A DNA stretch of 64,000 bases from a virus: the IMG/VR virus record IMGVR_UViG_2140918012_000003; one strand, given 5' to 3'. A program made the position numbers and the translations under genes. The notes under the pieces were generated by a model. That model saw nothing but the letters and a program-made list of their open reading frames with translations. It was not told where the DNA came from and did not search any database. Within the stretch, counting starts at the first letter, position 1. Every line of letters begins with the position of its first letter. Of this stretch, positions 7,765-58,321 are shown piece by piece.

Positions 7765-8115
7765 TTGTTGCCAGAAATTACCAACTCACTTGTGTGGGAG
7801 CGTGATCTTGTGCGCATCGTCGAAATGGACGATGGCCACCGAAATTGGTTTGTTCTTGAGATTGTTGAAGGCTACGATGCGCTAGGTGCCAAGCGTTGGG
7901 TAGAGGCTACGCCGCGCGATCATCTAATTGCTCGTGCTGGTGCTGCCGTAGCCGAAGCTGATGCTGAAATTGAACGCCGGCTGGACGAACTAGAAAAGGC
8001 GCGTACGGCTGCTGATCTTCTTACGCAGCAGCAGGATACTCGTATCCCTAACGTAGACGAGTTACGAAAGCTAAAGTATTTAGAAGACTTCTTAAACACG
8101 CTCGGTAAGCCTTGA
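7765..8115 (+). CDS. hypothetical protein
   Basis: 116-aa ORF. Confidence 0.55.
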   Translation: MLPEITNSLVWERDLVRIVEMDDGHRNWFVLEIVEGYDALGAKRWVEATPRDHLIARAGAAVAEADAEIERRLDELEKARTAADLLTQQQDTRIPNVDELRKLKYLEDFLNTLGKP

Positions 8116-23475: not shown

Positions 23476-24477
23476 ATGCGCGGACTCGACGTAGGTACTA
23501 GCTTCCTCATATCTGCCAAAGAGGGCAAAGGCGACACTGTAATCTTTTCGGAGATACGCGACGCCTTCTTCCGGCTCACGCCAACCTCGCCTATTTCAGC
23601 TAGCATGATCCAAAAAGGTCTAGCTGGTAAAAAGCACTTCAAAGACACAGACGGCTCCTACGTAGTGGTTGGCCAAGACGCGATCGAGAAGGCCGTGGAG
23701 CGACACCTTTCGGCTCTTAGGCCAATGCACAGGGGAATTATATCACCCAAGGAAAAAGACGCTAGGCGCATTCTCAAGTACATCATGTCGGAAGTCCTGG
23801 GGCCACCGACCGAGAAGGGCGAAAAGCTAGTTTATTGCGTGCCGGCGCAGCCCATCGATGAGGCCAGTGATGATTTCGATGTAGGCTACCATGAAGATGC
23901 CCTGAACATGGACCTGCGCTCTTTGGGTTATGAGCCAAGCTCAATCAACGAGGCAGAGGCTATCTGCTATTCGGAATTGGCCAATGATGATTACACGGGC
24001 GTTGCGCTAAGCTTCGGTGCAGGGCTCGTAAATATTGCTGTAATGAGCAGTGGTGAGGCTGTTTTGAAGTTCAGCCTGAATAAATCTGGTGACTACGTGG
24101 ACAGGATGGCTGCTACGTCTACCGGTACACCTGACTCAGTAGTCCAAATCGAAAAAGAAAATGGTGATTTCACCGTAGGGCAGGAAGTCCCAGATAGTAT
24201 CGTGCTGTCGGCTGTCTCAAGCTACTACGTGCGCCTGATAGACTACGCTGTCAAAAATCTAGCTGCTCGCCTGAATGGTCCTGATCTACCCAAATTTACG
24301 AAGCCTATCCCCATCGTCATTGCTGGTGGTACATCCAAGGCCAAGGGGTTTATCGAGCAGTTCAATAAAGCCCTGGCAGCCAACAAGCTCAGCATCCCTG
24401 TGAGTGAAGTCAGGTCTGCGACGGATCCGCTTCGGGCAGTAGCACGCGGGTGTCTTATTGCGGGATCGGTGTTGTGA
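23476..24477 (+). CDS. actin-like ATPase (MreB/FtsA/ParM fold)
   Basis: GLDVGTS phosphate-1; SFGAG phosphate-2; VIAGGTS adenosine motif; DPLRAVARG connect-2. Confidence 0.85.
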   Translation: MRGLDVGTSFLISAKEGKGDTVIFSEIRDAFFRLTPTSPISASMIQKGLAGKKHFKDTDGSYVVVGQDAIEKAVERHLSALRPMHRGIISPKEKDARRILKYIMSEVLGPPTEKGEKLVYCVPAQPIDEASDDFDVGYHEDALNMDLRSLGYEPSSINEAEAICYSELANDDYTGVALSFGAGLVNIAVMSSGEAVLKFSLNKSGDYVDRMAATSTGTPDSVVQIEKENGDFTVGQEVPDSIVLSAVSSYYVRLIDYAVKNLAARLNGPDLPKFTKPIPIVIAGGTSKAKGFIEQFNKALAANKLSIPVSEVRSATDPLRAVARGCLIAGSVL

Positions 24478-24830: not shown

Positions 24831-25126
24831 AGCTCTACCGTACAGCTACCGCAAACAGTGTTCTTGAACCAGCCGGGTTTTGGACGCCTGACCAAAAATA
24901 TGCTCGTTATGTCCACCCTGACCGGCGACTCTATGTGGCCAGTGTGCGTAGCGGTGCTAACGTCAAGAAGTACGCTGGGTCACCAACCCGCGCTATTTTA
25001 GAGGGTGCTATTGAGGATGGTGTGGATATCGCTGTTTTTGACGCATGGGACTGGATGACAGAAGAGTTTGTTGTTCTTGACCCGGTCGTCCTTGCGAACG
25101 TGAGACCGTTAGCCGGAGCACCGTAA
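24827..25126 (+). CDS. hypothetical protein (possible ART-like fold)
   Basis: LYRT...FWTPDQKYARY pattern. Confidence 0.5.
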   Translation: MKLYRTATANSVLEPAGFWTPDQKYARYVHPDRRLYVASVRSGANVKKYAGSPTRAILEGAIEDGVDIAVFDAWDWMTEEFVVLDPVVLANVRPLAGAP

Positions 25127-25158
25127 TGCCCGCAATTAAGCACTGGATCGAACCTTCC

Positions 25159-26061
25159 ATGAAACGCTTACTATTTGCTATCCTGGCCCTCGCCGCCTGC
25201 CCGAAGCCATCAACGACACCCGATGCAGGCCCACAGACGCGCCCAGTATTTACGATCAAAAATGGGTGTGCTGAAGAAATCTGGATTCAGCAACAGGGCA
25301 TGCCTGCTGGAACACCCGCAGTTGTGAAGCTTGAACGTGGGAAGGGCACGACTTACAACATTCCCATTGCAGGTCTTGCGAGCACCCGCTTTTGGGCTAA
25401 GTGGGGCTGCGATAAAGACGGGCAAAATTGCAAGGTGGGCCAAAGCTCGCCTCCATGCCCCAAGACAGGCTGCGCGCCACCTGTTGACTCTAAAATAGAG
25501 GCCACGTGGGGTTGCGATTTGCCAGAGGCCCAGTGTGGCCGAACCCCGCAGGGCAAGACGCTCAAGGGGGCGACGTTTTGGAACGCTTCAGCCGTTGACG
25601 GCTACACGCTGCCATTCCAGATCGAAGTAGGTGCAGGTGGTGGTGCTGGATGCGAGCCAGTTAATTGCAACGAAACCTACCAGGGCCAGTGCCCGACCGA
25701 TGAGAATCTGAGTACGGACGGTAAGTACCCCGATCTCAAGAGCGTCGATTTGCATGCTTCAGATGGGTATGGGTGTTTTTCACCGTGTATGAAACTTACA
25801 ACGGCGACGAGTGCTGGTGGCAAGGGCTACCTGCCAAGTGACGCGCAGGCTCAATGGTATTGCTGTCCCACGCCGCCTATTTCAAGCCCTGCTTGTCAAA
25901 AAGGGCCTGTACCCAAGACCAAATATGTGCAAAATATCCATGCTGCTTGCCACAATACTGCGTATGGCTACGCCTACGATGATGGCCTCGGCACACGCAC
26001 CTGTACGCCGACCACGAAGATCATAATGACCTATTGCCCTCCGCAGCCAGCAGCAAAATGA
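25159..26061 (+). CDS. thaumatin-family (PR-5-like) lipoprotein
   Basis: lipobox LAAC after MKRLLFAIL; TIKNGC, RFWAKWGC, SAVDGYTLP, AYGYAYDD and many Cys. Confidence 0.82.
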   Translation: MKRLLFAILALAACPKPSTTPDAGPQTRPVFTIKNGCAEEIWIQQQGMPAGTPAVVKLERGKGTTYNIPIAGLASTRFWAKWGCDKDGQNCKVGQSSPPCPKTGCAPPVDSKIEATWGCDLPEAQCGRTPQGKTLKGATFWNASAVDGYTLPFQIEVGAGGGAGCEPVNCNETYQGQCPTDENLSTDGKYPDLKSVDLHASDGYGCFSPCMKLTTATSAGGKGYLPSDAQAQWYCCPTPPISSPACQKGPVPKTKYVQNIHAACHNTAYGYAYDDGLGTRTCTPTTKIIMTYCPPQPAAK

Positions 26062-29038: not shown

Positions 29039-29299
29039 ATGATTATTTACACCAAACCAGGCACGACTAGCAGGGTGCATCTCCATAATTTTGGCGAAAA
29101 ACTTAGATTTAGGTTCGGCTTCGAAAAGTGGCTTGATGTAGACGCTGCGATCATGATGAACCTCAAAGGTGAGCAGCCAGCCTTGTATGAAATTGGAGAT
29201 CGTCTGATCGACGCACGCGATGCTCTGAAAGCCCAGGAGCTTGCAGACGCGATGGAACTTTCTGCCAAGCTTGGCACGCGAGGTAAGGGCAATGAGTAG
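29039..29299 (+). CDS. hypothetical protein
   Basis: 86-aa ORF. Confidence 0.55.
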   Translation: MIIYTKPGTTSRVHLHNFGEKLRFRFGFEKWLDVDAAIMMNLKGEQPALYEIGDRLIDARDALKAQELADAMELSAKLGTRGKGNE

Positions 29300-31058
29300 C
29301 CTTTGCGCCTGCTGTGGTCAAAACCGGTGCAAGGTATGCCCTTGCTCGACGTGCAATTTGCCTGAAGAGACGCCAGCTAAAGCAGTTTTTAGTGCTCCCT
29401 TTGCAGATGGCGTAAAGCCGCTAATTGTCGCGCAGAATTTTACGTCTGGGGATGGGTTCACGCAGATCAATAGTCCAAACACAGTCACGTCTGCAACGTC
29501 AGGGCAAGCGAACCTAGGTTTCCGGTCTCCTACTACGAACGTGGTAGATACAAGCACAGAAGATTTTTGCCTCTGCCTTAAATTTGATATGAACCAATTT
29601 ACTGGCAGTCGGGCACGATTTCAAGTGCTGCTGTCGAACCCTAGCCTTAACGATTCATTCAGCTTTTCAACATCGGTCGGTAATTACATAGTTAGCTATA
29701 GTGGTCCTTCAGGTAGTGGCTCTGCCAATCTCGGCCCAGTTGTACCAGAGCGTGTGACTTTCAAAATGTGTGCTCGGCGCACCGGCCCGGACGCTGGTCT
29801 TTTGACGTACAAGCGCGTGGGCAGTGTGACTGGTACGTTTTCTGGTGTACTGGGTATTGCTGCGGGCTATCCGTCTGCACCTATGGAAGTTGATCTCACC
29901 CAGTCTGCGCAAGGCGCTGGTCAACTTAATATTGTAGACACTACACTACACGACCTGTGTATGCAGATTGGTGATTCGCGGCTTTGTTGCTGTGATGCTG
30001 CAATGCCGGCTGTTGAGAGTATTGCAATTGCCCTAGATGAGGTTACCGGCCCCACTTTCGGGCAGCCGTTCATGTTTTCTAACTTTATCTACACTATTAC
30101 ACTAGCCGCACCGGCAACTGAAGCCTTCGATGGGTTTATCAAGCTGCCGACAGGGGCTTTCGGGACATTACCCACTTTACCTTTTCATTTCGATGTAGGT
30201 CAGCAGACACTCAAGGGAGCAATCCTAGCAACATTTCCGTTTGATTTGAGTTTCTATTTTACGTCCGGTAATGGCTACGAAGTCAATGTGTTCAGGACGT
30301 GCAGTGACCTGGCGGTGAGTGCCCCTGTGCCTTTCACGGTATACGGCACCCAGGAGATTACAGTATGCAAGTCGGCAGATTCAATCCCACCGCTTGGGTC
30401 TAATAGTTACAGTTTTGAGTTGTCTAACGATGTACCTAGATCTTGGGGTACCACAAATTTTTCACCTGGTCAATGCTTTACACTTACTCCGTACAATGTT
30501 TGGTTCGCCCCTGGTTTGGCCCCGGAACTCATAGTCACTGAGACAATTAACGGCATGCCACCAAATGTAGTGGTGACGGCCATTACCGTAACGCCACCAA
30601 CAGCCGAGGTGCCCCTTAGCCAGACAGGTCTTGGTACGCAGACGGCGTCGGTCAGGGTATTCAGCCTACCGGGTGGTGCCACGGTTACGTTCAGGAATGG
30701 TATATCATTAGATGCGGTCTTGAACGGCACCCAAGTAGTGCCGCCCAACGGGTCGGGGGCATCGGGAACGCTGACCGGGTCGTTTAATTCAAGTACTTCT
30801 ATATTTACTTTTGATATGACATTTACGGGCCTTACTAGCCCGGCTACGGGTGCCACTATACACCAGGGGCCTATTGGGGTAAACGGTCCTGTTCAATTTG
30901 GGCTACCAGGTTTCCCGGCAGCTACATCAGGTGTATACTCAAATTCAATCCTAATACCAGGCCCACTGGTTGGTCCGCTGCTCGCTGGTGGTCTGTACGT
31001 ACAGATTGCAGATGCCGCATTCCCAGTTGGCGAAATCCGTGGGCAGATTCTTCCCTAG
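29292..31058 (+). CDS. Cys-tagged multidomain beta-rich protein with C-terminal CHRD domain
   Basis: N-term CACC..C..C.C..C; C-term LNGTQVVPP...IHQG..GVNGPV...LLAGGLYV...FPVGEIRGQI. Confidence 0.75.
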   Translation: MSSLCACCGQNRCKVCPCSTCNLPEETPAKAVFSAPFADGVKPLIVAQNFTSGDGFTQINSPNTVTSATSGQANLGFRSPTTNVVDTSTEDFCLCLKFDMNQFTGSRARFQVLLSNPSLNDSFSFSTSVGNYIVSYSGPSGSGSANLGPVVPERVTFKMCARRTGPDAGLLTYKRVGSVTGTFSGVLGIAAGYPSAPMEVDLTQSAQGAGQLNIVDTTLHDLCMQIGDSRLCCCDAAMPAVESIAIALDEVTGPTFGQPFMFSNFIYTITLAAPATEAFDGFIKLPTGAFGTLPTLPFHFDVGQQTLKGAILATFPFDLSFYFTSGNGYEVNVFRTCSDLAVSAPVPFTVYGTQEITVCKSADSIPPLGSNSYSFELSNDVPRSWGTTNFSPGQCFTLTPYNVWFAPGLAPELIVTETINGMPPNVVVTAITVTPPTAEVPLSQTGLGTQTASVRVFSLPGGATVTFRNGISLDAVLNGTQVVPPNGSGASGTLTGSFNSSTSIFTFDMTFTGLTSPATGATIHQGPIGVNGPVQFGLPGFPAATSGVYSNSILIPGPLVGPLLAGGLYVQIADAAFPVGEIRGQILP

Positions 31059-36721: not shown

Positions 36722-37744
36722 ATGTACAAGCTGCTTACACGTGATGCCTTTCGCGAGAGCGTCTTTGCACGCGATGGGCACAAGTGCATCTTGTGCAAGT
36801 CACCAGCCGTCGATGCCCACCACGTTATCGAACGACGCCTCTTCCCGGATGGTGGCTATTATCTCTCAAATGGCGCCTCTGTCTGCGAAAGCTGCCATCT
36901 GCGCTGTGAAGCCACGCTGGTTTCCTGTGAAGAAGTACGGGCTGCGGCCGGTATCAAACAGCTAGTCCTACCACCGCATTTGTACGCTGACGCAGAACAA
37001 GCCTACGATAAATGGGGCAACCCAATCTTGCCTAACGGCCAGCGGCTTCGCGGCGAGCTATTCGATGATGCCTCGGTACAAAAGGTCTTAGCACCGGTTC
37101 TTCATCTTTTCACAAACCGTGTGAAATACCCTCGTACTTGGCACCTGCCGTTTTCACCGGGCATGCACGATGATGACCGCATGATCGAATCGACTGCGCA
37201 CTTCGTAGGGCAGCGTGTAGTCGTCACCGAAAAACTCGATGGCGAGAACACTACCATTTATCGTGATTACGTTCATGCACGTTCGCTCGATTACGCACCT
37301 CGGGTTGACCGAGACTGGGTGCGTGCGCTAGCGGCTCGCATCGGTTATGAGCTAGACGAAGACTATCGTGTATGTGGAGAAAACCTTTGGGGGACCCACG
37401 CCATTAAATACACGCAACTACCATCATACTTCATGGTGTTTTCGCTGTGGGATGGGCTAAAGTGCTTGCCATGGGATGACACCAAGGACTGGGCTGCACT
37501 TCTGGGCTTGCAAACTGTACCGGTGCTCTTTGATGGTATCTGGGATGAAAATTTAATTCGCAAGCTGCACCAGAAACGCCGAGGTGTTGACGAGTCTGAA
37601 GGGTTCGTGGTACGCTTGGCTGGTAGCTTTCACTATCGAGATTTTCGTCATGCTGTCGCTAAGTACGTGAGGGCTGGTCACGTTGCTGGCTCACATGCGT
37701 ATACTACAAAACGCATTTTTGAAAGAAATGGGCTAGTACGATGA
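36722..37744 (+). CDS. HNH domain - RNA ligase fusion protein
   Basis: N-term RDGHKCILC...DAHH...NGASVCESCH; C-term KYPRT, TEKLDGEN (motif I), CGENL, EGFVVR, KYVR. Confidence 0.85.
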   Translation: MYKLLTRDAFRESVFARDGHKCILCKSPAVDAHHVIERRLFPDGGYYLSNGASVCESCHLRCEATLVSCEEVRAAAGIKQLVLPPHLYADAEQAYDKWGNPILPNGQRLRGELFDDASVQKVLAPVLHLFTNRVKYPRTWHLPFSPGMHDDDRMIESTAHFVGQRVVVTEKLDGENTTIYRDYVHARSLDYAPRVDRDWVRALAARIGYELDEDYRVCGENLWGTHAIKYTQLPSYFMVFSLWDGLKCLPWDDTKDWAALLGLQTVPVLFDGIWDENLIRKLHQKRRGVDESEGFVVRLAGSFHYRDFRHAVAKYVRAGHVAGSHAYTTKRIFERNGLVR

Positions 37745-40722: not shown

Positions 40723-42057
40723 ATGGGTTCCGAGGCAGACAAAAGCACTGAAAAAGCCCTAGTAATCGCATCTAGCGCTGAAATCAGCGAAAATTCGCCT
40801 ACTAGCACAGGGTTGGTAATTCATAATAGCCCAGCTAATAATAGAGGGATAGTCAGTCGGCTCGCCGCGCCCTCGACCGAGCTAGCCCCAAGGCGCATCA
40901 CCGCAGCATCAGCCGGCGTCCAGCCCCCTAAGGCAGCGCATGTATTCACCTTCTCTATAGCTGACATCGATGATAGCCTACGCAACAACGCCAAATTAGC
41001 GTACGAGGCTTGGCTTAACCACAAACCAAAATCTAAGAGAGCCTACGTCGATAGTTTCAAAGCGTTCATGCGTTTCGTTGGAGCCACGACAACAGAAGAC
41101 GCAGCAGCCTTCCTCTTAGCTGGTGGCCATGTGCATGCTCAGGCCATCTTGGCAAATTTTGCCAAGCACTTGTTAACCGCTCAACGGGTCACGATGACCG
41201 GCCGTAGAACGATTGCGCCTGACTTAACCAGGTTGCCAACCACGGTACGGAATAGGCTGGCTGCGGTGCGATCCTTTTTGAAGTCAGCTAACACCAACAA
41301 TGTAATCGACTGGACTGTAGAATTCAAACCAAAAGACCACAACATACCAGCAGCCAGGCCATACTCAAAAGTAGAAGGCCCAGGCGCCAAGATGCTGGAG
41401 GTTATCTACGACCACTATACGAATGGGCTTGATGCGGCACGAGCTTCTGGAGATTCAAAAACCGCGACCAGGCTGGCTCGGGACTTTGCTATCTTGTCTC
41501 TCATGATGTTTGCAGCCCTGCGGCGTAAAGAGATAGCTGGTCTAGAAATCACCGATATTGACCTGACTGACTTGTCCAGCGCTCGCGTTAACATCCTAGG
41601 AAAAGGGCGAGAGCACAAGGAATGGTTCAATGTTACGAAAGAAGCGGTCATGCCGATATCTGAATGGTTGACCTACCGGTCAACCGTCGAGGGAGCAGAT
41701 CGGCATAATAACCTCTTCATTTCTTTGTCCACACGCAGCGATGAAAAAGGTACACCTCTTCGCCTCAACGCCTACAACGATATTCTTGCTGAACTAGAAA
41801 TAACCCTAGGCTTGCCACCTGGTGTGTACCTGAAGCCTCATGGCTTTCGGCATACTGCGATTACATACGCCTATGAAAATTACGGAGAGCAGGCTGCTAT
41901 CGCCCTGGCACGACATGCGGATCTTGCGACCACGATGCGCTACATCGATAGTATCAGGAAAGCCCTTGCAAGTCTAGAAGCTATGCGTGGGTTGGCAGAA
42001 AAAATAGCAAGGAGACGACCCGCCGTGATGGCGCTACCAATCTCCTATTCGCCCTGA
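40723..42057 (+). CDS. tyrosine recombinase/integrase (XerC/D-like)
   Basis: catalytic residues present: ALRRKEI (R), GKG (K), PHGFRH (HxxR), ARHADLATTMRY (H, Y). Confidence 0.93.
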   Translation: MGSEADKSTEKALVIASSAEISENSPTSTGLVIHNSPANNRGIVSRLAAPSTELAPRRITAASAGVQPPKAAHVFTFSIADIDDSLRNNAKLAYEAWLNHKPKSKRAYVDSFKAFMRFVGATTTEDAAAFLLAGGHVHAQAILANFAKHLLTAQRVTMTGRRTIAPDLTRLPTTVRNRLAAVRSFLKSANTNNVIDWTVEFKPKDHNIPAARPYSKVEGPGAKMLEVIYDHYTNGLDAARASGDSKTATRLARDFAILSLMMFAALRRKEIAGLEITDIDLTDLSSARVNILGKGREHKEWFNVTKEAVMPISEWLTYRSTVEGADRHNNLFISLSTRSDEKGTPLRLNAYNDILAELEITLGLPPGVYLKPHGFRHTAITYAYENYGEQAAIALARHADLATTMRYIDSIRKALASLEAMRGLAEKIARRRPAVMALPISYSP

Positions 42058-42099: not shown

Positions 42100-44286
42100 T
42101 TGCACTGTTCGCCTAAATTTCCAGTCAGGGACCTCGGTCAGTTGCACTGTTCGCCTAGTCAGGCTTACCTCACAGAAGTGCGGCACGCAAGCGCCGAATC
42201 GCGCTGGCCAAGGACCGCTTCTTGGCCGACAGGCCGAACCTGATCATACTCTCGATCTGAAAGTAGGTCAGGTCTCTATTGACCGCGTTAACGCTGTCAG
42301 CGACCTGCTGCTCTAGTTCTGCCTCGGGCAGTTCCTCTACAAATCCGAGTAGGTTGAGAAGATTTTCACGGGTTCCCTAGGTCACGCCTGGGCATCTTTA
42401 CTTAGCTCTTCAATGAACGAACGGTCGGTTTACGACCCTTCCATTTACTATCGCGAACAGGCTTGATCGTACACAACGGGCCATCCGGTCAGCACACACG
42501 ATCAAACACGGGTGGACGCAATTGCACTGTTCGCCAGAGAGTCGTCGCATGTCAGATTGCACTGTTTGCCTTGAAGACCTGCGTTGGCTTCCAGGATTAC
42601 TGCACTGTTCACCGAACATTTCACGTCGCGGGTATTTTTCTCTTGCACTGTTCGCCGCTAAGTTTTTTAATCTACGAGTACTTCCTTTTGCACTATTCGC
42701 TTGCGGGCCTGCACTGTTCACCCTAAATGGTCGCCTTTCGCGCCAAGTACTTGCTTGCACTGTTTGCCGCCAAAGTCAACATGGTCATCCACGACACTTG
42801 CACTGTTCTTCCCAAAGTCGAGGAAACAACTCGACGAGATAGCTTGCACTGTTTGCCACACTTGAGGAATGATCTGCTCAGAAACCGTGGAAGTCGCATT
42901 CAGGTCGATTGACGGCGCCCGCTCAATGGCTTCGCGCAGGGCCGCTCCAGAGTCGCATTGCACTATTCGCTAAAAAGGTTATGGCCAAAAAGAGAAACTT
43001 GCACTATTCGCACCTCAGGCACAACGTCGATCTGGGGCGACTCAAAAACTTGCACTGTTCGCTTAAATTCGCCGTCATGCTTTTTCGCCTAAGTTGAGAA
43101 AATCGAGCGCTCTGCACTATTCGCCTGAATCAGCGTGAAAACCATGGCGCTCCTGGACCGACCTTGCACTGTTCGCCTGATAACAAAGCTGCGTGGGCCA
43201 AGCTGCGGCAGCACAAATTGCACTGTTCGCCTAAATTGCCTCTCGCCACATAACCTCAACTAGACGTGTACATTATTGCACTGTTCGCGTCAAGACCTTT
43301 TTGAACAAAGGCCAGGTCTCCCAGATGGATTGCACTGTTTGCCAAATTTAGCAAGGGCGGCTGCACATGCTGCACTGTTCACCTTAAAGAGCGTCGCGTC
43401 GTACACCTTGCACTGTTTCGCCTAAACCCTGAGAGCGTTCAGACCGCCTTTCCGTATTGCACTGTCCTTGAAAAAGTACGACAACCGCTGGTCTTGCATT
43501 GTTCGCCAGACTAATACGAGGGCGCGCTTTCTTCTTGCACTGTTTTGCCATCGACGGCGCCGAGTAATTGCACTGTTTCGCCTAAACCATGTTCTTCCCC
43601 AGAAGAACTCCGTCTTGCACTATTCGCAGACCTGATACCCCTTGCACTGCTCGCCATCCTCTTTAACCACCAGGTAGAACCGCCACTGGATTTGCACTGC
43701 TTCGCCAGCCAGTCCAACGAGATCATCTTACACTGTTCGCCACAGAGGAACCATCATGCGCTATTGCACTGTATCGCGACTTTGCACAACGGGAAACTAG
43801 TCGGAATCGAACCGAATTTGCACTACTCGCTAAGAAGATTGAAGATGTTGTCTTTGCACTGTTTTAGCACAAATTCCTGAGACGAATTGCATTGCTCGCC
43901 TAGAAGCCGAAAGTGGTAGACGGCTTGCACTGTTTCGCCAACACACTCTCATCGTCGTCGGCACTTGCACTGTTTTGCCTAAAGCTTAATCACGTCCGCA
44001 ATCTGAATTGCACTGCTCGCGTTTAGGGGAGCGTCTTCCGATCTTAGCGCTGCCCTTCAAGGGAGGATGTTTGTGCCAACAGCTTTCTTGCACTGTTCAC
44101 CTGATGAATCATGCTCCACATCAGGCCAGCTTCTCGCAGTCGCCATGCTCGGATAATCGAATTTGCACTGCTCACCTGAACCCATCACAAACAGTCGTGA
44201 CGCTCGCCGCTTGCACTGTTCTGCCCTATTTCAAAATTATCAAAGATCGAATGTTCACCTGGGACTACTCTACTGCATTATTCGCC
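42100..44286 (-). CRISPR. non-canonical CRISPR-like array: about 40 x 14-bp repeat (+ strand TTGCACTGTTCGCC; - strand GGCGAACAGTGCAA) with unique spacers
   Basis: 40 copies counted by eye from 42100 to 44273; 31 of 39 periods are 33-58 bp; adjacent to a Cas12f-like gene and an anti-repeat hairpin. Confidence 0.75.
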
Positions 44287-44298
44287 AGTAAGAAAAGT

Positions 44299-44384
44299 GG
44301 GGTGCCCGCCGATTGGCGAACTTACGCGGAGCAACGTCCACGCATCCGGCACAAGTGCAATTGGCCGTCGGAGACGGGCACCCC
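44299..44384 (-). ncRNA. putative tracr/scaffold RNA with split anti-repeat
   Basis: 10-bp perfect terminal stem (GGGGTGCCCG/CGGGCACCCC) plus CCGA/TCGG; contains GGCGAAC (44315-21) and AGTGCAA (44354-60), the two halves of the repeat in inverted orientation; inner stem needs G-U pairs available only on the - strand. Confidence 0.7.
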
Positions 44385-45005: not shown

Positions 45006-46603
45006 CGAATTTCCCCTTGCACGACCGCTGGAGCGGCTTTCTTCATGCGTGCGACCTTCATCTCGGCCTTGGTATTGCTGATCATCTTATCGGTGCGTGA
45101 GATAGCTTTGATAAGGGCAGCCTTGTATGGCTCGCCAGCGACCTTGGATGACAATAGCATGTTCTGGATGGAAGTCAACTCCAAATCGCCACTATGCTGA
45201 CAGTTGACGCACTCAAAAAAGCCATCCTTGGCGTCGTAGCCTACCACTTTGGGTAGACGCTTGATATTTTCCTTGCAAGTATGACTGCACACAGGGCATT
45301 TCTGCGAGATAAAAGCTGATGCCTCTTCGTTGACCTTGACCCCAGCCCTGCGGGTGAGCGCGTCAATCACACGGCCTTTCAATTCGGCCAGCGGGAACCT
45401 ACGCACGTAGGGTGCCAAATTCGGGTCGTCGGATTGGAAGGCTCCGAAATTATCGAGTAGCACAATACTAGCACCGTGGCGCTCAGCGAAGACCTGCACA
45501 GCTTTGGCTGCACGCCAAAGCTCTGTGTCGGTAAAGCGTGCCTCTTTATCGGAGAGCTTTTTCAGAGCAGCAAAATGCTTCTTCTTGCCTCGACCTGCGT
45601 GGGGTGTAGCGCTCAGGTCTTTTTGAATGAGCTTGCGCCGAGCATACATCTGCGATTTGAGGCGCACCAAATTCGTGCCTGGGTAGCTGCCCGTGGTCAC
45701 ATGGTTCTTCTTGTCGATCGCCAGGAACGACAGCATGTTCACGACGCCACGGTGAACAATCACGAGCGAGTCAGACTCTTCTTTTGCGAGCCGCGAAGAC
45801 TTGTAGGGAAGGCGCACGAACCATTTTTCGGGCTGGCCTGGCCGGCGCACCCGAGCAATTTGCAGGGCGCCTTTAGCATAGCCTTCGGCTTCTGGAACAT
45901 CGCTCTTGTCGTAGTCAATGGCCACGAGCTTTTTCAGCACCTCGACCATCGAGGCCACGCCACGGCCATGCAGGCTTTTACACACGAGGCGCATCTTGCC
46001 CTCACCGGGGCGCCAAGCCGAAGTTTCGATGACGACGTTCGTGTAGGTCTTGGGTTGACCCGTGCGAACGTCGGTTTTAGTCACTTCCTCAAAGAGCACA
46101 CGCCAGTTCCGGTTCCTGATCGTAAAAGGGACGTTACGTAGCAACGGGAAGGACGAATCGCCACGCAGAAGCGCGTTGAGCCTGTCACCGGCAAATTCCG
46201 AATCCACGATCCGCTTGGTAACGCTTGACCAGATATACTCGGTCAAGCCTGTAGCCTTCATGGCCTTTTCAACAGCCGTCTTGAACCCTACCGTGTCCCA
46301 GCACTCGGAAGGTAGCGGTACCTCTTGATCTTTGAGCATGGCGCGCTCATCAGCCGTAGAAAAGCGCATCTTGCCAGCCATACGCTGGTCCCGAAGCGAG
46401 ACAGCGATATCTGCGATAGCCACCTGAGCAGCCTTGCCGATATCACGGCTGGCAGTGCGTAGCTCTGCCCAGGCTTTCGTTCCGTCCGTTTTTTCAGGGC
46501 GGTAAAGCTCAAGCGTCATACAGGCGACCGGGTTTTTGGTCGGCTTGTGGACGCTGGATTCTTCTTCATCGAAATCATCGAGCGCGTCAGCAGCTTCTTG
46601 CAT
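45002..46603 (-). CDS. Cas12f/TnpB-family RNA-guided protein, predicted nuclease-inactive
   Basis: LLRGDSSFP, GRGKKK...LSDKEARF..., SQKCPVC and FECVNC zinc ribbon; RuvC positions read H287, D387, E478 (ORF-track numbering) in place of D/E/D; ATG 46603 is 7 nt after the -10 box. Confidence 0.85.
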   Translation of the reverse strand: MQEAADALDDFDEEESSVHKPTKNPVACMTLELYRPEKTDGTKAWAELRTASRDIGKAAQVAIADIAVSLRDQRMAGKMRFSTADERAMLKDQEVPLPSECWDTVGFKTAVEKAMKATGLTEYIWSSVTKRIVDSEFAGDRLNALLRGDSSFPLLRNVPFTIRNRNWRVLFEEVTKTDVRTGQPKTYTNVVIETSAWRPGEGKMRLVCKSLHGRGVASMVEVLKKLVAIDYDKSDVPEAEGYAKGALQIARVRRPGQPEKWFVRLPYKSSRLAKEESDSLVIVHRGVVNMLSFLAIDKKNHVTTGSYPGTNLVRLKSQMYARRKLIQKDLSATPHAGRGKKKHFAALKKLSDKEARFTDTELWRAAKAVQVFAERHGASIVLLDNFGAFQSDDPNLAPYVRRFPLAELKGRVIDALTRRAGVKVNEEASAFISQKCPVCSHTCKENIKRLPKVVGYDAKDGFFECVNCQHSGDLELTSIQNMLLSSKVAGEPYKAALIKAISRTDKMISNTKAEMKVARMKKAAPAVVQGEIR

Positions 46604-46610
46604 GTTGGTC

Positions 46611-46642
46611 ACTATACTCCTATGGTTCTTGACGTGTCAAGA
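46611..46642 (-). promoter_or_regulatory. promoter of the Cas12f-like operon with palindrome over the -35 box
   Basis: TTGACA-18-TATAGT on - strand; TCTTGAC-gt-GTCAAGA inverted repeat 46627-46642. Confidence 0.7.
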
Positions 46643-54197: not shown

Positions 54198-56297
54198 CTA
54201 AGTCAGATCCATGAGTTTGAAATATTGAATCCAGGCATCCAGGTCCTTGCCGCTACTCCACTGGTGCCGAGCGTATGCGAATTCGCCCTGCATAGCAATC
54301 CGAAAAAGCGGGTACTTGGCGTAGAGCGCTCCAATGGCTTGCTTGGCGACATCTTCCTTGTCCGTACCGCGATTAACAAGGTAGTCCAACGCAGAGGAAT
54401 TTTTCTGCTGTCTACCCTCCTGGTACTTGCGCACAGCCACAGTCACCGGATGCTTGGGGCCAAGAGCCTTCGTTACATCCTGCACATCCGCCCTCAACAC
54501 ATCGCACGCACTCCACTGTTTAAGCTCAAGTTGAGCTTTCACTTCGGGCAACGCAAGAATTTTCTTCGTGAAAGCTGCGCTCCATTTATCGTAGGCAGTG
54601 CCCTTGCACTTGTCGCCCGTGACAGGCTTAGCCTCCGTGGTCTTATACCCGTAGATTTCGGGCATTTTCGCGCCCGGCGCAAAGGTCTTGACGATCTCAG
54701 CGTCCTGTCGAAAACGCCGGTAAATATCCTGACCGTCACTACTCTTGAAGCTCGACAAAATGACAAACACGTCATCATCGGTCGGCTCCCTCACAGCGAT
54801 CTCCCAGCGATCTGAGAGCAGGTCGCTGTGGATATTATCGGGCACCAACCGGAACATTTTCGCCCGGTGCTTCGGGTTTACCTGGCGTTGCGGATAGCTC
54901 CGAGTTGCAGGAGCCGTCCAAGGCAGCGTTGAAAGATTGATGAGTGGAATGCCCTTGATCAGCTTCTTCTCAATTTCAGCTTCAAGAGCAGCACGTACAG
55001 CTTCCACCATGACCGTATCGATACGCTTGGCTACACTCTTCCGTCGGCGTCGAGGGCGACCGTGCTTGTCCGTACGGTCGTTGTCTTCATCGAGCACCGT
55101 GCGACCGACGATGTATTCGCCCCGTTTATCTACCTCAAACCCCGACAGCGCTCGCCCATCATCACGAATGATAATACGGGAGCTTTCACCAACATGAACT
55201 TCGAATGCGTTAAATATGGGCCTCTCACCATCTTTGACAGCGGGTGGCACAATCTCAACGTAATCCTCAGTAAGCTCTTTTGACTGCTTGTCGAGCTTGA
55301 GCCCAAATCTACGCAGTCCCTGCGCCTTGAGGCGACGCTGCCACGGCAGGACATCCGGCGCATGGATTTCGCGCAGGGCAACCTCAACGTATTCAGCAAT
55401 AAATGCATTGAGCTTATCCACCAAAGCCTTTTTGGTCGCAAGGCTATATTTCAGAGCCTCACGAGACGCACTGACCTGCACATCCCCGATGTTGAAAAAG
55501 AGCACACCACTGAGTTTCTTGACGCATTCCTCGGGTGACCCAGCCTCGTCAGCATCGTTGACAAAAAGCTCGTCCAAATTGATCTGGTACGGGATGCAGC
55601 CCATGACAGCCGTCCATTCACCGCTGCTGTAGTAATCAGCATCCACAAGAGCGCCGTGAACGAGCCTTGCAGGCACGTCTGGAAGAGCCGTATTGATGAC
55701 AGGACGCGGTTCAAAATACTGGAAGACCTTCCTGGCCTTCGTCTCAAATTCACCAATGTCCTGCTGACGCACAGCCATCTGAATCGTCACGCCAGTTTCA
55801 TCACCGCAAGGTTCTTCACCAAGCAGATTGATTACACCACGCTCAGACGGATCGAGCACAGCCACGAACGTGCGCCGCACGCCACCGTGGCAGGAGATCA
55901 CCGTAAAAGAATCAGAGTACGCAAAGGCACTTTTGCTCCCGATCCCCATAAAGCCCACTTCGCCATCGCTATTGCGTTTGGTGGACGCACCGTACTGCGA
56001 GTAGACGTTGAATACGTCATCGAGTGACAGGCCAGGGCCAAAATCCTGGATGGAAAGCGTGGGGTCAGCCAGGGTGGGCAACGTGACCTTGATGGGCTTA
56101 TCGCCCTTGCCGATTGACCTGTGGGCATCCCACGCATTCGATCCGTACTCACGCAGAACAGCCGTGATCTTGTCGGAGTACAGGGTACTGCGCAGGATTT
56201 CAAGAATATGCGAGGTATCGGTTTCCGAGATACCAAACGTACCTTGCGCCGTTACACCGCTTGATTCAAGCTCTCGCGGATGCTTATTCGGAATCAT
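54198..56297 (-). CDS. rIIA: rIIA-like protein (GHKL ATPase N-terminus)
   Basis: ILRSTLYSDKITAVLREYGSNAWDAH; IQDFGPGL; GASTKR..GFMGIGSKSAFAY; ETGVTI. Confidence 0.88.
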   Translation of the reverse strand: MIPNKHPRELESSGVTAQGTFGISETDTSHILEILRSTLYSDKITAVLREYGSNAWDAHRSIGKGDKPIKVTLPTLADPTLSIQDFGPGLSLDDVFNVYSQYGASTKRNSDGEVGFMGIGSKSAFAYSDSFTVISCHGGVRRTFVAVLDPSERGVINLLGEEPCGDETGVTIQMAVRQQDIGEFETKARKVFQYFEPRPVINTALPDVPARLVHGALVDADYYSSGEWTAVMGCIPYQINLDELFVNDADEAGSPEECVKKLSGVLFFNIGDVQVSASREALKYSLATKKALVDKLNAFIAEYVEVALREIHAPDVLPWQRRLKAQGLRRFGLKLDKQSKELTEDYVEIVPPAVKDGERPIFNAFEVHVGESSRIIIRDDGRALSGFEVDKRGEYIVGRTVLDEDNDRTDKHGRPRRRRKSVAKRIDTVMVEAVRAALEAEIEKKLIKGIPLINLSTLPWTAPATRSYPQRQVNPKHRAKMFRLVPDNIHSDLLSDRWEIAVREPTDDDVFVILSSFKSSDGQDIYRRFRQDAEIVKTFAPGAKMPEIYGYKTTEAKPVTGDKCKGTAYDKWSAAFTKKILALPEVKAQLELKQWSACDVLRADVQDVTKALGPKHPVTVAVRKYQEGRQQKNSSALDYLVNRGTDKEDVAKQAIGALYAKYPLFRIAMQGEFAYARHQWSSGKDLDAWIQYFKLMDLT

Positions 56298-56303
56298 GCA
56301 AGT

Positions 56304-56332
56304 AGTGTATAACAGGTTTGGCAGGATGTCAA
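56304..56332 (-). promoter_or_regulatory. conserved phage promoter (leaderless-type)
   Basis: TTGACATCCTGCCAAACCTGTTATACACT, 1 mismatch to the 33950 copy; ATG 6 nt downstream. Confidence 0.8.
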
Positions 56333-56374
56333 GTACGGTCTAGCGTGCCGGTTCCTGCGTGATATTCTCGTCGG

Positions 56375-56623
56375 TCATTTTGGATTCTTTCTTTTGGCTA
56401 TCTCTGCTTTGTACGCAGTGAGTTGCTGGACGTACTTGGCTTCGCGTTCGGGCATGTTGTCGCAAGCTTCGATCTTCCGTTCAATTCCTTTCAGGAACGT
56501 CTCTGCGACTTCAAGCATGAACGGGTCGCGCGACAGATCAAACGCCTGCAAACAGGTCTTGAACCCTCGCTCGTCGTTGGCGTCGGCTGCATCCATGAAC
56601 GCGGACACAACTTCGTCGGTCAC
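56375..56623 (-). CDS. hypothetical protein
   Basis: 82-aa ORF. Confidence 0.6.
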   Translation of the reverse strand: MTDEVVSAFMDAADANDERGFKTCLQAFDLSRDPFMLEVAETFLKGIERKIEACDNMPEREAKYVQQLTAYKAEIAKRKNPK

Positions 56624-56625
56624 TT

Positions 56626-56940
56626 CTACACCGCATCTAACTTCCGCACAGGTTGGTGCCTAGGGTCAATTAGTGACGTTGAATCACCGCATACAGTCAC
56701 TACTGGCACTCGCTCCTTCTCGCCGTAAAACGCCAGCATTTTCTGCGGCCACTCGCTAGTTTTAACCGCGTGCCGATCCCAGATTTCGTCTTCTACAAGC
56801 TTTTGTGATGGGCTCCTAAATGATACACCATGCTCCAAATCTTCCGCTAATTGACGCAGGTCATTGTCAGAAACATGCTTGACCCAATTAGGCTCTGCCC
56901 ACTCACCCACCACATACTCAGGGTCAAGAGGCAGACGCAT
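56626..56940 (-). CDS. hypothetical protein
   Basis: 104-aa ORF, GAGG upstream. Confidence 0.6.
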   Translation of the reverse strand: MRLPLDPEYVVGEWAEPNWVKHVSDNDLRQLAEDLEHGVSFRSPSQKLVEDEIWDRHAVKTSEWPQKMLAFYGEKERVPVVTVCGDSTSLIDPRHQPVRKLDAV

Positions 56941-56946
56941 ACCTCA

Positions 56947-57384
56947 CTAGACCTTGAAATCCAGATGCTGCACCGTACGCAGCGTTGCGTGAACCGTGCC
57001 CTTGTCCAAGTCAATTGCGATCTGCTCAAAACCGTGCGCCCGTGCCCATTCGATAGCGCCCTTCAATTGCTGCATGAGCGGGTTGCCATTCGGCTGGACC
57101 AGCGGCTGCTTCTGCACTCTCATGCCGACGGCCGTACGCTTATATACACCCAGACGAAGCTGTTTAGCACGAAGTTTAACGGCCAACGGCGACCTGGTAT
57201 CGTGCTGCTGGCACTTCTTGTGCTTGATACCAAGCTCAGCAGCTTTTTGGGACACACCACGCTTAGAGCGTCCCATAATTTTGGCGACAGCCGCCCAATT
57301 ATCTCCATTGGCAGCTTCACGAAGCTTGGCGATTTCCGATACGGACCATGCATTGCCTGGCATTTGATTACTCCTATCGTACAC
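56947..57384 (-). CDS. Myb/SANT-like HTH protein (putative)
   Basis: WSVSEIAKL....WAAVAKIMGRSKRGV. Confidence 0.6.
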   Translation of the reverse strand: MYDRSNQMPGNAWSVSEIAKLREAANGDNWAAVAKIMGRSKRGVSQKAAELGIKHKKCQQHDTRSPLAVKLRAKQLRLGVYKRTAVGMRVQKQPLVQPNGNPLMQQLKGAIEWARAHGFEQIAIDLDKGTVHATLRTVQHLDFKV

Positions 57385-58321
57385 TCATGATCTTCTTAAC
57401 GAGCGCTACCTTGCCACCAGGAATCTTGCTGGCGCCGATGATGCTGAGGTTTTTGGTGGCGTACTTGCGCAAGTCTTCGATGGACAGCTTGAGCAATCCT
57501 TCCGCACCAAGCTTATCGAATTTAGAAGCCTTGGGACGAGCCTTTTCGACGTGCTCAGGCTTGAGCGTCTTCTTCACCTTGCCCTGGTCAGCCTTGAGGT
57601 TGAAGCTAGTCGAAGGCAGATTGGCACCATGCATGCCCACCACCTTGTACTTCGACACCCGCATCTTCTGCTGGCTAGCATCGTAGGGCACGCACACGAC
57701 ATCAGCCGGATCGATTTCACAGATCACGAGACGACTTTCACCGCTACCGAAAGTACTCGCATAGTGCAATGAGCCAACGTGGAAACCTTCATGACACGCA
57801 ACTTGCGGGTCATCCGAAATCTTGTTGCGCGGCATCTCATTGACCACACCCGGCTTGTTGCTGACTTCACCCGAGTGGTGGTCCTTGTAGTCAGCCCGCA
57901 CGGACTTGTAGGCCAAGATATTGCCATCTTCGGAAATGGCGATGTTCTGGTGGTCGAGGAACCCCCAAAGTTGGTTTACTGACCGGTATGACGGATTCTC
58001 GGAAAGCTTCTCCCAGAACTTGAACAGGCTCTCGGGGCTTTCACCCTTGGCAGCCATATTGAAGATACGCCCCGAAAGCTCGCCAGGCAACGCCTCACCA
58101 GCGTACTCGATGGTGCTACCATCAACCTTGAACTTGCCCTTCGCCCATTTCTGAACGCTCATAGGCACGGACAGGTGCTGCGGCACGCTATCCCAGTCTT
58201 CGTCTATGATGGCTTTGCGCAAGTTGGTGAAATTAGGGGTGCCCTTGCGCACTGAATGGGTCTTGCCGTTGATAACGACGGTGATAGAATCGGTGGTGAT
58301 CGTATACGCAGGTTTCGTCAT
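57374..58321 (-). CDS. rIIB: rIIB-like protein
   Basis: FLDHQNIAISEDG.ILAYKSV..DYKDHHSG...EMPRNKISDDP..C..G.HVG...VVCVP.D...KMRVSKY. Confidence 0.88.
   Translation of the reverse strand: MTKPAYTITTDSITVVINGKTHSVRKGTPNFTNLRKAIIDEDWDSVPQHLSVPMSVQKWAKGKFKVDGSTIEYAGEALPGELSGRIFNMAAKGESPESLFKFWEKLSENPSYRSVNQLWGFLDHQNIAISEDGNILAYKSVRADYKDHHSGEVSNKPGVVNEMPRNKISDDPQVACHEGFHVGSLHYASTFGSGESRLVICEIDPADVVCVPYDASQQKMRVSKYKVVGMHGANLPSTSFNLKADQGKVKKTLKPEHVEKARPKASKFDKLGAEGLLKLSIEDLRKYATKNLSIIGASKIPGGKVALVKKIMSVR

Follow-up and report, generated by a model that had tools for sequence, protein, structure and literature searches.

A phage-borne array of 40 half-repeat units, probably the guide array of a tracrRNA-dependent Cas12f-like system

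Programs that search for CRISPR arrays work with an operational definition: near-identical direct repeats of about 23-55 bp, separated by spacers of near-constant length. Among the compact type V effectors described so far, Cas12m2, whose RuvC site reads His317/Asp485/Asp579, holds one magnesium ion, binds the non-target strand and silences without cutting (PMC10442227), and an earlier paper drew attention to large branches of Cas12f in which the catalytic site is altered (PMC10691335). For the sigma-associated dCas12f proteins, a published scenario has the array minimised to a single half repeat beside the trans-activating CRISPR RNA (tracrRNA) and then fused (PMC10691335; 10.1101/2025.06.10.658865); for Cas12r, a single repeat is enough for guide production (10.64898/2026.04.20.719267). 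Here, we describe a locus in a 64,000-nucleotide stretch of viral DNA (IMG/VR record IMGVR_UViG_2140918012_000003; hereafter the window), in which 40 same-strand copies of a 14-nt repeat, TTGCACTGTTCGCC, lie at 42100-44286. We consider it probable that they form the guide array of a Cas12f-like (type V-F/V-U3-like) system that is carried by a phage and depends on a tracrRNA, the repeat having been cut to the 14 nucleotides that pair with this RNA.

An earlier note on this DNA, made from the letters alone, had proposed an array of about 40 units with non-repeated spacers. All 40 of the starts it listed bear a recognisable copy of the repeat, no pair of spacers shares more than 9 nt and none is duplicated. 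At up to three mismatches, TTGCACTGTTCGCC has 41 matches in the window, 36 of them inside the array, all on the plus strand, compared with 7.8 +/- 2.7 (maximum 15) in dinucleotide shuffles; solitary copies outside the array do not exceed chance. The four copies that fall outside this search are variants with a 1-nt insertion or a diverged 3' part that retain TTGCACTG. In a position-wise profile of the copies, conservation is confined to the 14 nucleotides, which stay at 1.3-2.0 bits over 40 copies, and everything beyond them carries background information. The TTGCAC edge of the repeat is sharp, dropping from 1.5-2.0 bits to at most 0.3 bits; the opposite edge decays gradually and shows a weak T-rich signal. 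The shortest spacer has 7 nt and the longest 366 nt, the median is 30 nt, and 31 of the 39 spacers fall between 19 and 48 nt. The array thus has the unique spacers between same-strand repeats that the finders look for, with a repeat length and a spread of spacer lengths that lie outside their definition; Tandem Repeats Finder gave no report in this region. Interruptions of 100 and 366 nt break the array; the longer one holds a 68-codon frame (Table 1), perhaps a gene fragment, that lacks a usable start codon and matches no family. Nothing beyond the repetition itself speaks for a repetitive protein-coding gene, which the earlier note had named among the findings that would refute its proposal: the longest open reading frame (ORF) across the array has 116 aa, stops occur in every frame and the unit lengths are not multiples of three, so we give this explanation a negligible chance and rule it out. 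An integron was also ruled out, for want of attC-like symmetry and because the units would be too short as cassettes.

What ties the 14-mer to RNA is a structured element beside the array. Read on the minus strand, this tracrRNA-like RNA, which is followed by ACUUUUCUU, is closed by an outer stem of 10 bp (44299-44308 with 44375-44384). Half-site 1, UUGCACU (44360 down to 44354), lies in the loop of hairpin P2, and half-site 2, GUUCGCC (44321 down to 44315), is single-stranded and comes after hairpin P3; together, they are the perfect complement of the minus-strand repeat, GGCGAAC-AGUGCAA. Homologues of the RNA were found in the related loci L001, L002/L003 (two copies each), L004, L006, L007, L008 and L009, and nine copies from eight loci could be aligned, each adjoining an effector gene. 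On these nine sequences, RNAalifold returned the outer stem, P2, P3 and an unpaired half-site 2, with compensatory changes in 12 of 24 pairs. Pair cells are standard in 97.7% of cases, against 35-47% when the partners are slid by 1-3 columns, and none of 500 shuffles equalled the observed values. Three invariant G-U pairs are possible on the minus-strand reading only. We base the call of the RNA strand on these pairs and on synteny in the relatives; in six of these, arrays and tracrRNA have the same orientation as the effector gene and the repeats end in ...TGCAA[CGT].

The main evidence that the 14-mer acts as an RNA pairing with the tracrRNA is that half-site 2 follows the 3' end of the repeat of its own locus. 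In the window, half-site 2 GUUCGCC stands opposite the repeat 3' segment GGCGAAC; in L001, AUUCACU stands opposite AGUGAAU; in L004, GCUCUUU opposite AAAGAGC; and in L007, ACUCUUU opposite AAAGAGU. L002/L003 show the same within one locus, where the CCUCAUC of tracrRNA copy 1 matches GAUGAGG in the proximal units of the array, and the CUUCAUC of copy 2 matches GAUGAAG in the distal ones. In six of eight comparisons, the helix of half-site 2 with the own-locus repeat is 7-9 bp long, compared with 2-6 bp for non-cognate repeats. Judged by sequence, the locus would therefore have a defining trait of type V-F, a tracrRNA-like RNA whose anti-repeat is complementary to, and covaries with, the 3' end of the repeat. 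The two tandem copies in L002 (L002:7743-7847 and 7876-7980, the same in L003) differ in half-site 2, with CCTCATC in one and CTTCATC in the other.

This covariation also bears on the idea of a DNA-level site array, in which the 14-mers would be protein-binding or recombination sites (iterons, centromere-like sites or core sites of a tyrosine recombinase) with no RNA guidance. In its favor, the distance from the last unit to the end of the convergent tyrosine recombinase gene is 42 nt, L004 and L007 have integrases 1-4 kb away from the locus, and inactivated TnpB-like proteins are repeatedly associated with phage-type integrases (PMC10691335). Against it, the 3' end of the repeat covaries with an RNA half-site from locus to locus, the 14-mer has no dyad symmetry, every copy lies on the effector's strand at irregular spacing, and no integrase was called in the fetched flanks of L001, L002/L003, L008 and L009. 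We regard a DNA-site array as highly improbable.

The protein encoded next to the RNA, P0001, is Cas12f-like by sequence, profile and fold. Against PDB sequences, it matches Cas12f1 (9i8y) with an E-value of 1.4e-11 as a single sequence and 5e-21 as a family profile, and AsCas12f with 5e-17; PADLOC assigns it to Cas12u3 (3.8e-23) and Cas12f (5e-20). The top Foldseek matches of its AlphaFold2 model (predicted local distance difference test score 79) are AsCas12f structures, with E-values of 1e-19 to 1e-18, and dCas12f, Cas12m2 (9e-10) and Cas12p (5e-8) come far below. The lone small effector, with its Cas12f-like WED/REC/RuvC/zinc-ribbon fold, is therefore a further trait shared with type V-F. 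At 533 aa instead of the 536 aa listed, the database copy, P0004, suggests that the ATG at 46603 is the actual start. Twenty-six close homologues (39-60% identity) have an intact ORF; all are on metagenomic contigs, the largest of which, at 40-86 kb, carry phage-like genes.

The active site of this family departs from the canonical Cas12f Asp-Glu-Asp triad. In every member, 'VHR[SG]V' aligns with the Cas12f RuvC-I motif 'G[IV]DLG', placing an invariant His at the position of the Cas12f Asp. Asp occupies RuvC-II across the family except in one member, which has Glu there; the RuvC-III Asp motif persists, with Glu in the window protein, and the zinc ribbon is preserved. Most members are thus His-Asp-Asp and the window protein is His-Asp-Glu (His287/Asp387/Glu480), with its CxxC...CxxC zinc ribbon in place. 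Looking further afield, in 146 of the 173 nearest representative clusters (P0030-P0176) the RuvC-I position reads His, Asn or Arg and then Arg, with the other two acidic residues kept, compared with Asp in 8. The RuvC-I substitution is thus the mark of a large Cas12f-like clade and is under selection. At E-values up to 1e-10, this His/Asn-Arg clade comprises 366 proteins. Two members of the clade that we examined, L018 and L019, also adjoin repeat arrays. Since His replaces the first RuvC Asp, as in the non-cutting Cas12m2, the likeliest mode of action of the effector is binding and silencing of DNA rather than cleavage.

Effector gene, 202-aa gene, structured RNA and array follow one another on the minus strand behind a promoter-like site (Table 1). 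The effector gene is 700 bp from the array, and a 110-nt gap separates the 202-aa ORF from it. P0002, the 202-aa protein, has no match in Pfam, NCBIfam, PHROGs or PADLOC, and an Atlas search returned hypothetical proteins only, plus a weak DUF3102 lead. A counterpart with 40% identity (BLASTP E 3e-48) occupies the same position in the closest relative (L006, 1839-2492).

Table 1. Features of the array locus in the window
Feature	Position	Strand	Description
Putative guide array, 40 units	42100..44286	-	unit = 14-nt handle GGCGAACAGUGCAA then unique spacer, in the minus-strand reading
366-nt array interruption	42156..42521	.	holds a 68-codon stop-to-stop frame, minus strand, 42170-42376
tracrRNA-like structured RNA	44299..44384	-	read from sequence, folding and nine-copy alignment
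202-aa gene P0002	44397..45005	-	between effector gene and tracrRNA-like RNA
Cas12f/V-U3-like effector gene P0001	45002..46612	-	536 aa as listed
Sigma-70-like promoter candidate	46611..46640	-	TTGACA, 18 nt, TATAGT; 11/12 consensus match, directly upstream of the Cas12f-like gene; pattern match only
Terminator-like hairpin and T-run	42006..42024	-	about 75 nt past the last unit, in the 3' end of the convergent integrase gene; consensus scan, pattern match only
Tyrosine recombinase P0003, 444 aa	40723..42057	+	Pfam Phage_integrase 1.2e-15, NCBIfam XerC-like 6.5e-16, PHROG integrase 6e-17

The window as a whole is phage-like, with many small co-directional ORFs, a DNA methylase and a metallophosphatase. 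Its DNA has no match among deposited phages, and its rIIA protein has distant matches only. Other genes (at 23476-24477, 25126-26061, 29241-31058, 36722-37744 and 54198-58321) encode a Volactin-type actin homologue, a thaumatin-family protein, a CHRD-domain protein, an HNH-RNA ligase fusion and rIIA-/rIIB-like proteins. No Cas1, Cas2 or Cas4 was found among the roughly 30 ORFs within about 10 kb of the array, the rest of the window being only partly annotated, and none appears in the precomputed Pfam hits for the flanks of the relatives. The neighbors of the effector gene contain no sigma-factor domain, no tRNA genes were found, and Rfam returned nothing in the window at gathering thresholds and nothing for the tracrRNA region at permissive ones.

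The relatives place the short repeat in a family context. Their canonical repeats are 36 nt long, end in ...ATGCAA[CG] or ...GGTGCAAG and recur with a period of 62-77 bp (near 73). The likeness that the earlier note saw between the minus-strand repeat end, GTGCAA, and the repeats of Cas12f is borne out by these endings, and its placing of the array as CRISPR-like and Cas12f-related gains from three sides: the Cas12f/V-U3-like gene on the same strand, the tracrRNA-like RNA with an exact complement of the 14-mer and the 36-nt-repeat arrays at homologous loci. The canonical arrays of L001, L003, L007 and L009 finish with units in which no more than the final 12-20 nt of the repeat are present (L001 9500-9800, L003 10060-10290, L007 11900-12140, L009 8400-8460), irregularly spaced by 24-110 nt. 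In L007, the short repeats resemble a canonical repeat with an internal deletion, ACGAAG being joined directly to AGTGAATGCAAC. Because several canonical arrays of relatives end in such short-repeat, irregular units, the window is the end-member of a family trend, with 40 short units and zero canonical repeats. Its units retain at most a weak cTTTa 5' of the 14-mer in the profile; trimming of 36-nt repeats one by one is therefore not evident in the window. Arrays also differ between related loci: L002 (9485-10130) and L003 (9485-10275) have an identical effector and arrays that differ by two internal units, and family arrays therefore vary between strains by internal gain or loss, not at an end. 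Spacers conserved across homologous loci, which the earlier note had raised as a warning sign, are thus not what we see. Searches with the repeat-gap-repeat pattern gave no match in IMG/VR and only unrelated 15- and 29-bp tandem satellites in JGI metagenomes (L010-L012), and no related loci turned up in viral contigs.

Solitary half-repeats such as AAGAGGAATGCAA[TC] are dispersed along the gene strand in related phages and frequently follow directly on stop codons (L009:9479-20161, L008, L004:7156-9548, L007:9744-10014). They also occur between the tracrRNA and the effector start and within the first codons of the effector gene, and L009 has 22 one-strand copies of the 7-mer core where about 1.3 are expected. 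These half-repeats may be single-guide units or regulatory sites. In L006, positions 1-262, directly upstream of the effector gene, hold two tRNA-like stretches and two copies of a 24-bp direct repeat, TTTTCTCTGCCTTGCACCAGAGAA, which contains TTGCAC.

Alternatively, the array itself might be an RNA-level decoy or regulator, its units being binding sites that load, titrate or autoregulate the effector-tracrRNA complex, like repeat-like elements near other cas operons. Their positions in L004, L007 and L009 (before the effector start, in its first codons and past genes) would fit this idea, as would the spacers of only 6-17 nt in some relatives and the failure to find targets for the window spacers in the window and in the phage and plasmid collections. 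Forty units with unique spacers of at least 19 nt look like a guide array instead, the window has no solitary copies beyond chance, and homologous loci have ordinary arrays at the same position. We therefore think a decoy or regulator quite improbable.

How might a guide array with such short repeats work? We propose that a minus-strand transcript would start at the promoter-like site at 46640, or at an internal one, and cover, in this order, the effector gene, the 202-aa gene, the tracrRNA and the array. Upon processing, each unit would supply the handle GGCGAAC-AGUGCAA with a guide directly 3' of it. The two handle halves would pair with the GUUCGCC and UUGCACU that flank P3 to form a branched repeat:anti-repeat duplex bound by the effector, and the first ~20 nt past the handle would steer the complex to matching DNA. 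There, the His-Asp-Asp/Glu effector could silence its targets, be they rival mobile elements or host genes, by binding and most likely not by cleavage. We place the guide 3' of the handle since Cas12f and TnpB are arranged in this way and conservation stops abruptly on this side; the lower bound of spacer length, with 38 of 40 spacers reaching at least 19 nt, suggests a guide of about 20 nt. Selection would act only on the part of the repeat that pairs with the tracrRNA, which would account for both the sharp boundary between repeat and guide and the irregular unit length.

The spacers themselves give few hints of what would be targeted. Phage and plasmid collections, where the earlier note had proposed to look, hold no matches above chance, and the spacers match nothing elsewhere in the window. 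Of six 20-nt guide-proximal probes run against IMG/VR, two match contigs exactly for 20-21 nt and then diverge, with ~0.1 chance matches expected per scan by a rough estimate. These two genomes share no kinship with one another or with the window, and none of the remaining spacers has a match in either. The spacer at 43778-43817, ATTCGGTTCGATTCCGACTAGTTTCCCG... in the minus-strand reading, resembles the T-arm and acceptor 3' strand of a tRNA; it has no exact match among genome or viral contigs. tRNA genes are common attachment sites of integrative elements.

Several observations weigh against a working guide array. None of the spacers has a convincing target in the window, the phage and plasmid collections or, for the six probes, IMG/VR, and two spacers, of 7 and 13 nt, are too short for guiding. 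A consensus scan found no clear promoter for the array itself, and the outer stem of the tracrRNA-like RNA with its U-run resembles a terminator between the genes and the array. The closest relative, L006, has no array in the 190 nt between its tracrRNA and the contig end. Thermodynamic co-folding of the tracrRNA with the handle plus guide did no better than with shuffled handles; the program used is limited to nested structures, which leaves no room for pairing into a hairpin loop, and there was interference from the guide. Finally, wobble-compatible substitutions are more numerous in the minus-strand reading, in line with our strand call, but not significantly so (23 vs 12, p 0.2).

Some of these points would suit a relic, that is, a decayed CRISPR array that is no longer used and whose short repeats and irregular spacing are deletion debris in a phage without adaptation genes. 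The irregular unit length, the 7- and 13-nt spacers and the two interruptions would all fit decay, Cas1, Cas2 and Cas4 were not found nearby, the L007 short units resemble deletion products, and repeat divergence rises toward the effector/tracrRNA end (Spearman 0.39, p 0.014), so that the most diverged repeats are nearest the effector gene. Decay, however, should erode the repeat evenly, yet exactly the 14 nucleotides complementary to the tracrRNA are held while the rest is at background. Furthermore, the tracrRNA half-sites are still perfect against the consensus, the effector ORF is intact behind an 11/12 promoter match, and nearly all spacers (38 of 40) keep 19 nt or more. Taken together, we find a relic decidedly unlikely.

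Returning to the guide array, mean edit distance to the repeat consensus is 1.1 at the integrase end and 1.8 at the effector end. This gradient is opposite to that of the relatives, whose canonical repeats adjoin the effector gene. Provided that, as is usual, repeats are better in newer units, growth would take place at the end beside the integrase, which we offer as a lead only. The earlier note had further concluded that acquisition is not ruler-based. Our data do not bear this out: no adaptation genes were found, yet the resemblance of the L007 short units to internally deleted canonical repeats makes trimming after acquisition a live alternative. A bolder scenario, which we hold to be unlikely, is that a handle-only array grows without a Cas1-Cas2 ruler, with recombination, template switching or the neighboring tyrosine recombinase, for example, adding units at its integrase-proximal end. 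The result would be a 40-guide programme for a non-cutting effector that silences rivals or host genes, and the solitary half-repeats in related phages would be the same device for single genes.

If the array functions as we propose, a natural type V array works with the tracrRNA-pairing handle as its sole repeat, and the minimal Cas12f-like repeat would be set by comparative evidence. Handle-only repeats would then be useful for very compact multiplexed arrays. CRISPR finders based on length and regularity probably miss such arrays, which may be under-counted in phage genomes as a consequence. The locus also points to a large, mostly unstudied, phage-carried Cas12f-like clade with His or Asn at the first RuvC position, which may silence rather than cut. 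A limited literature search brought up no multi-unit array in which the tracrRNA-pairing handle alone makes up the repeat.

Finally, we would place the locus among the systems that it most resembles. It is closest to type V-F (Cas12f, formerly V-U3), with which it shares a small effector with best sequence, profile and fold matches to Cas12f, a separate putative tracrRNA that would pair with the 3' part of the repeat, a proposed guide 3' of the repeat and the ...TGCAA repeat end. It differs in its 14-nt repeat, its 7-366-nt spacers, its His-Asp-Glu instead of Asp-Glu-Asp RuvC site, the lack of nearby Cas1/Cas2/Cas4 and its phage-like genome. Cas12m2 (type V-M) has the same substitution pattern at the three RuvC positions (PMC10442227), but uses CRISPR RNA alone and has an HCCC zinc finger. 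As Cas12m2 is a far weaker fold match than AsCas12f (E 9e-10 vs 1e-19) and the window has a tracrRNA-like RNA, this likeness is one of the active site and not of membership. Phage-borne compact Cas12 proteins without adaptation genes are also known from Cas12r of Thermus phages (10.64898/2026.04.20.719267) and the Cas12p 'hacker' (10.1101/2025.01.20.633832). However, the repeats of Cas12r measure 29 bp and its spacers a uniform 32-33 bp, it has an active RuvC and no tracrRNA, and Cas12p is only a distant fold match to the window effector (E 5e-8). TIGR-Tas (PMC12045711) likewise has short-repeat guide arrays in phages that CRISPR finders miss, with Nop-domain Tas proteins and dual-spacer guides, whereas the window has a Cas12f-like neighbor and a repeat that can pair with a tracrRNA; TIGR-Tas identity was ruled out on account of this neighbor. 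The dCas12f-sigmaE and sigma-TnpB systems are Cas12f-derived with an altered RuvC, pass through a half repeat in the published scenario and have 14-16-nt guides and a sharp scaffold/guide junction. Unlike the window system, they lack the zinc finger and RuvC-III, their guide is a fused single RNA without a tracrRNA, and they lie beside rpoE in Bacteroidota chromosomes with one or few guides. The window has kept the zinc ribbon, the acidic residues at RuvC-II and -III and a separate tracrRNA, has no adjacent sigma factor and has 40 half-repeat units. If our reading is right, it adds a multi-guide stage that retains the tracrRNA to the published path from Cas12f arrays via the 'half repeat' to fused guide RNAs.

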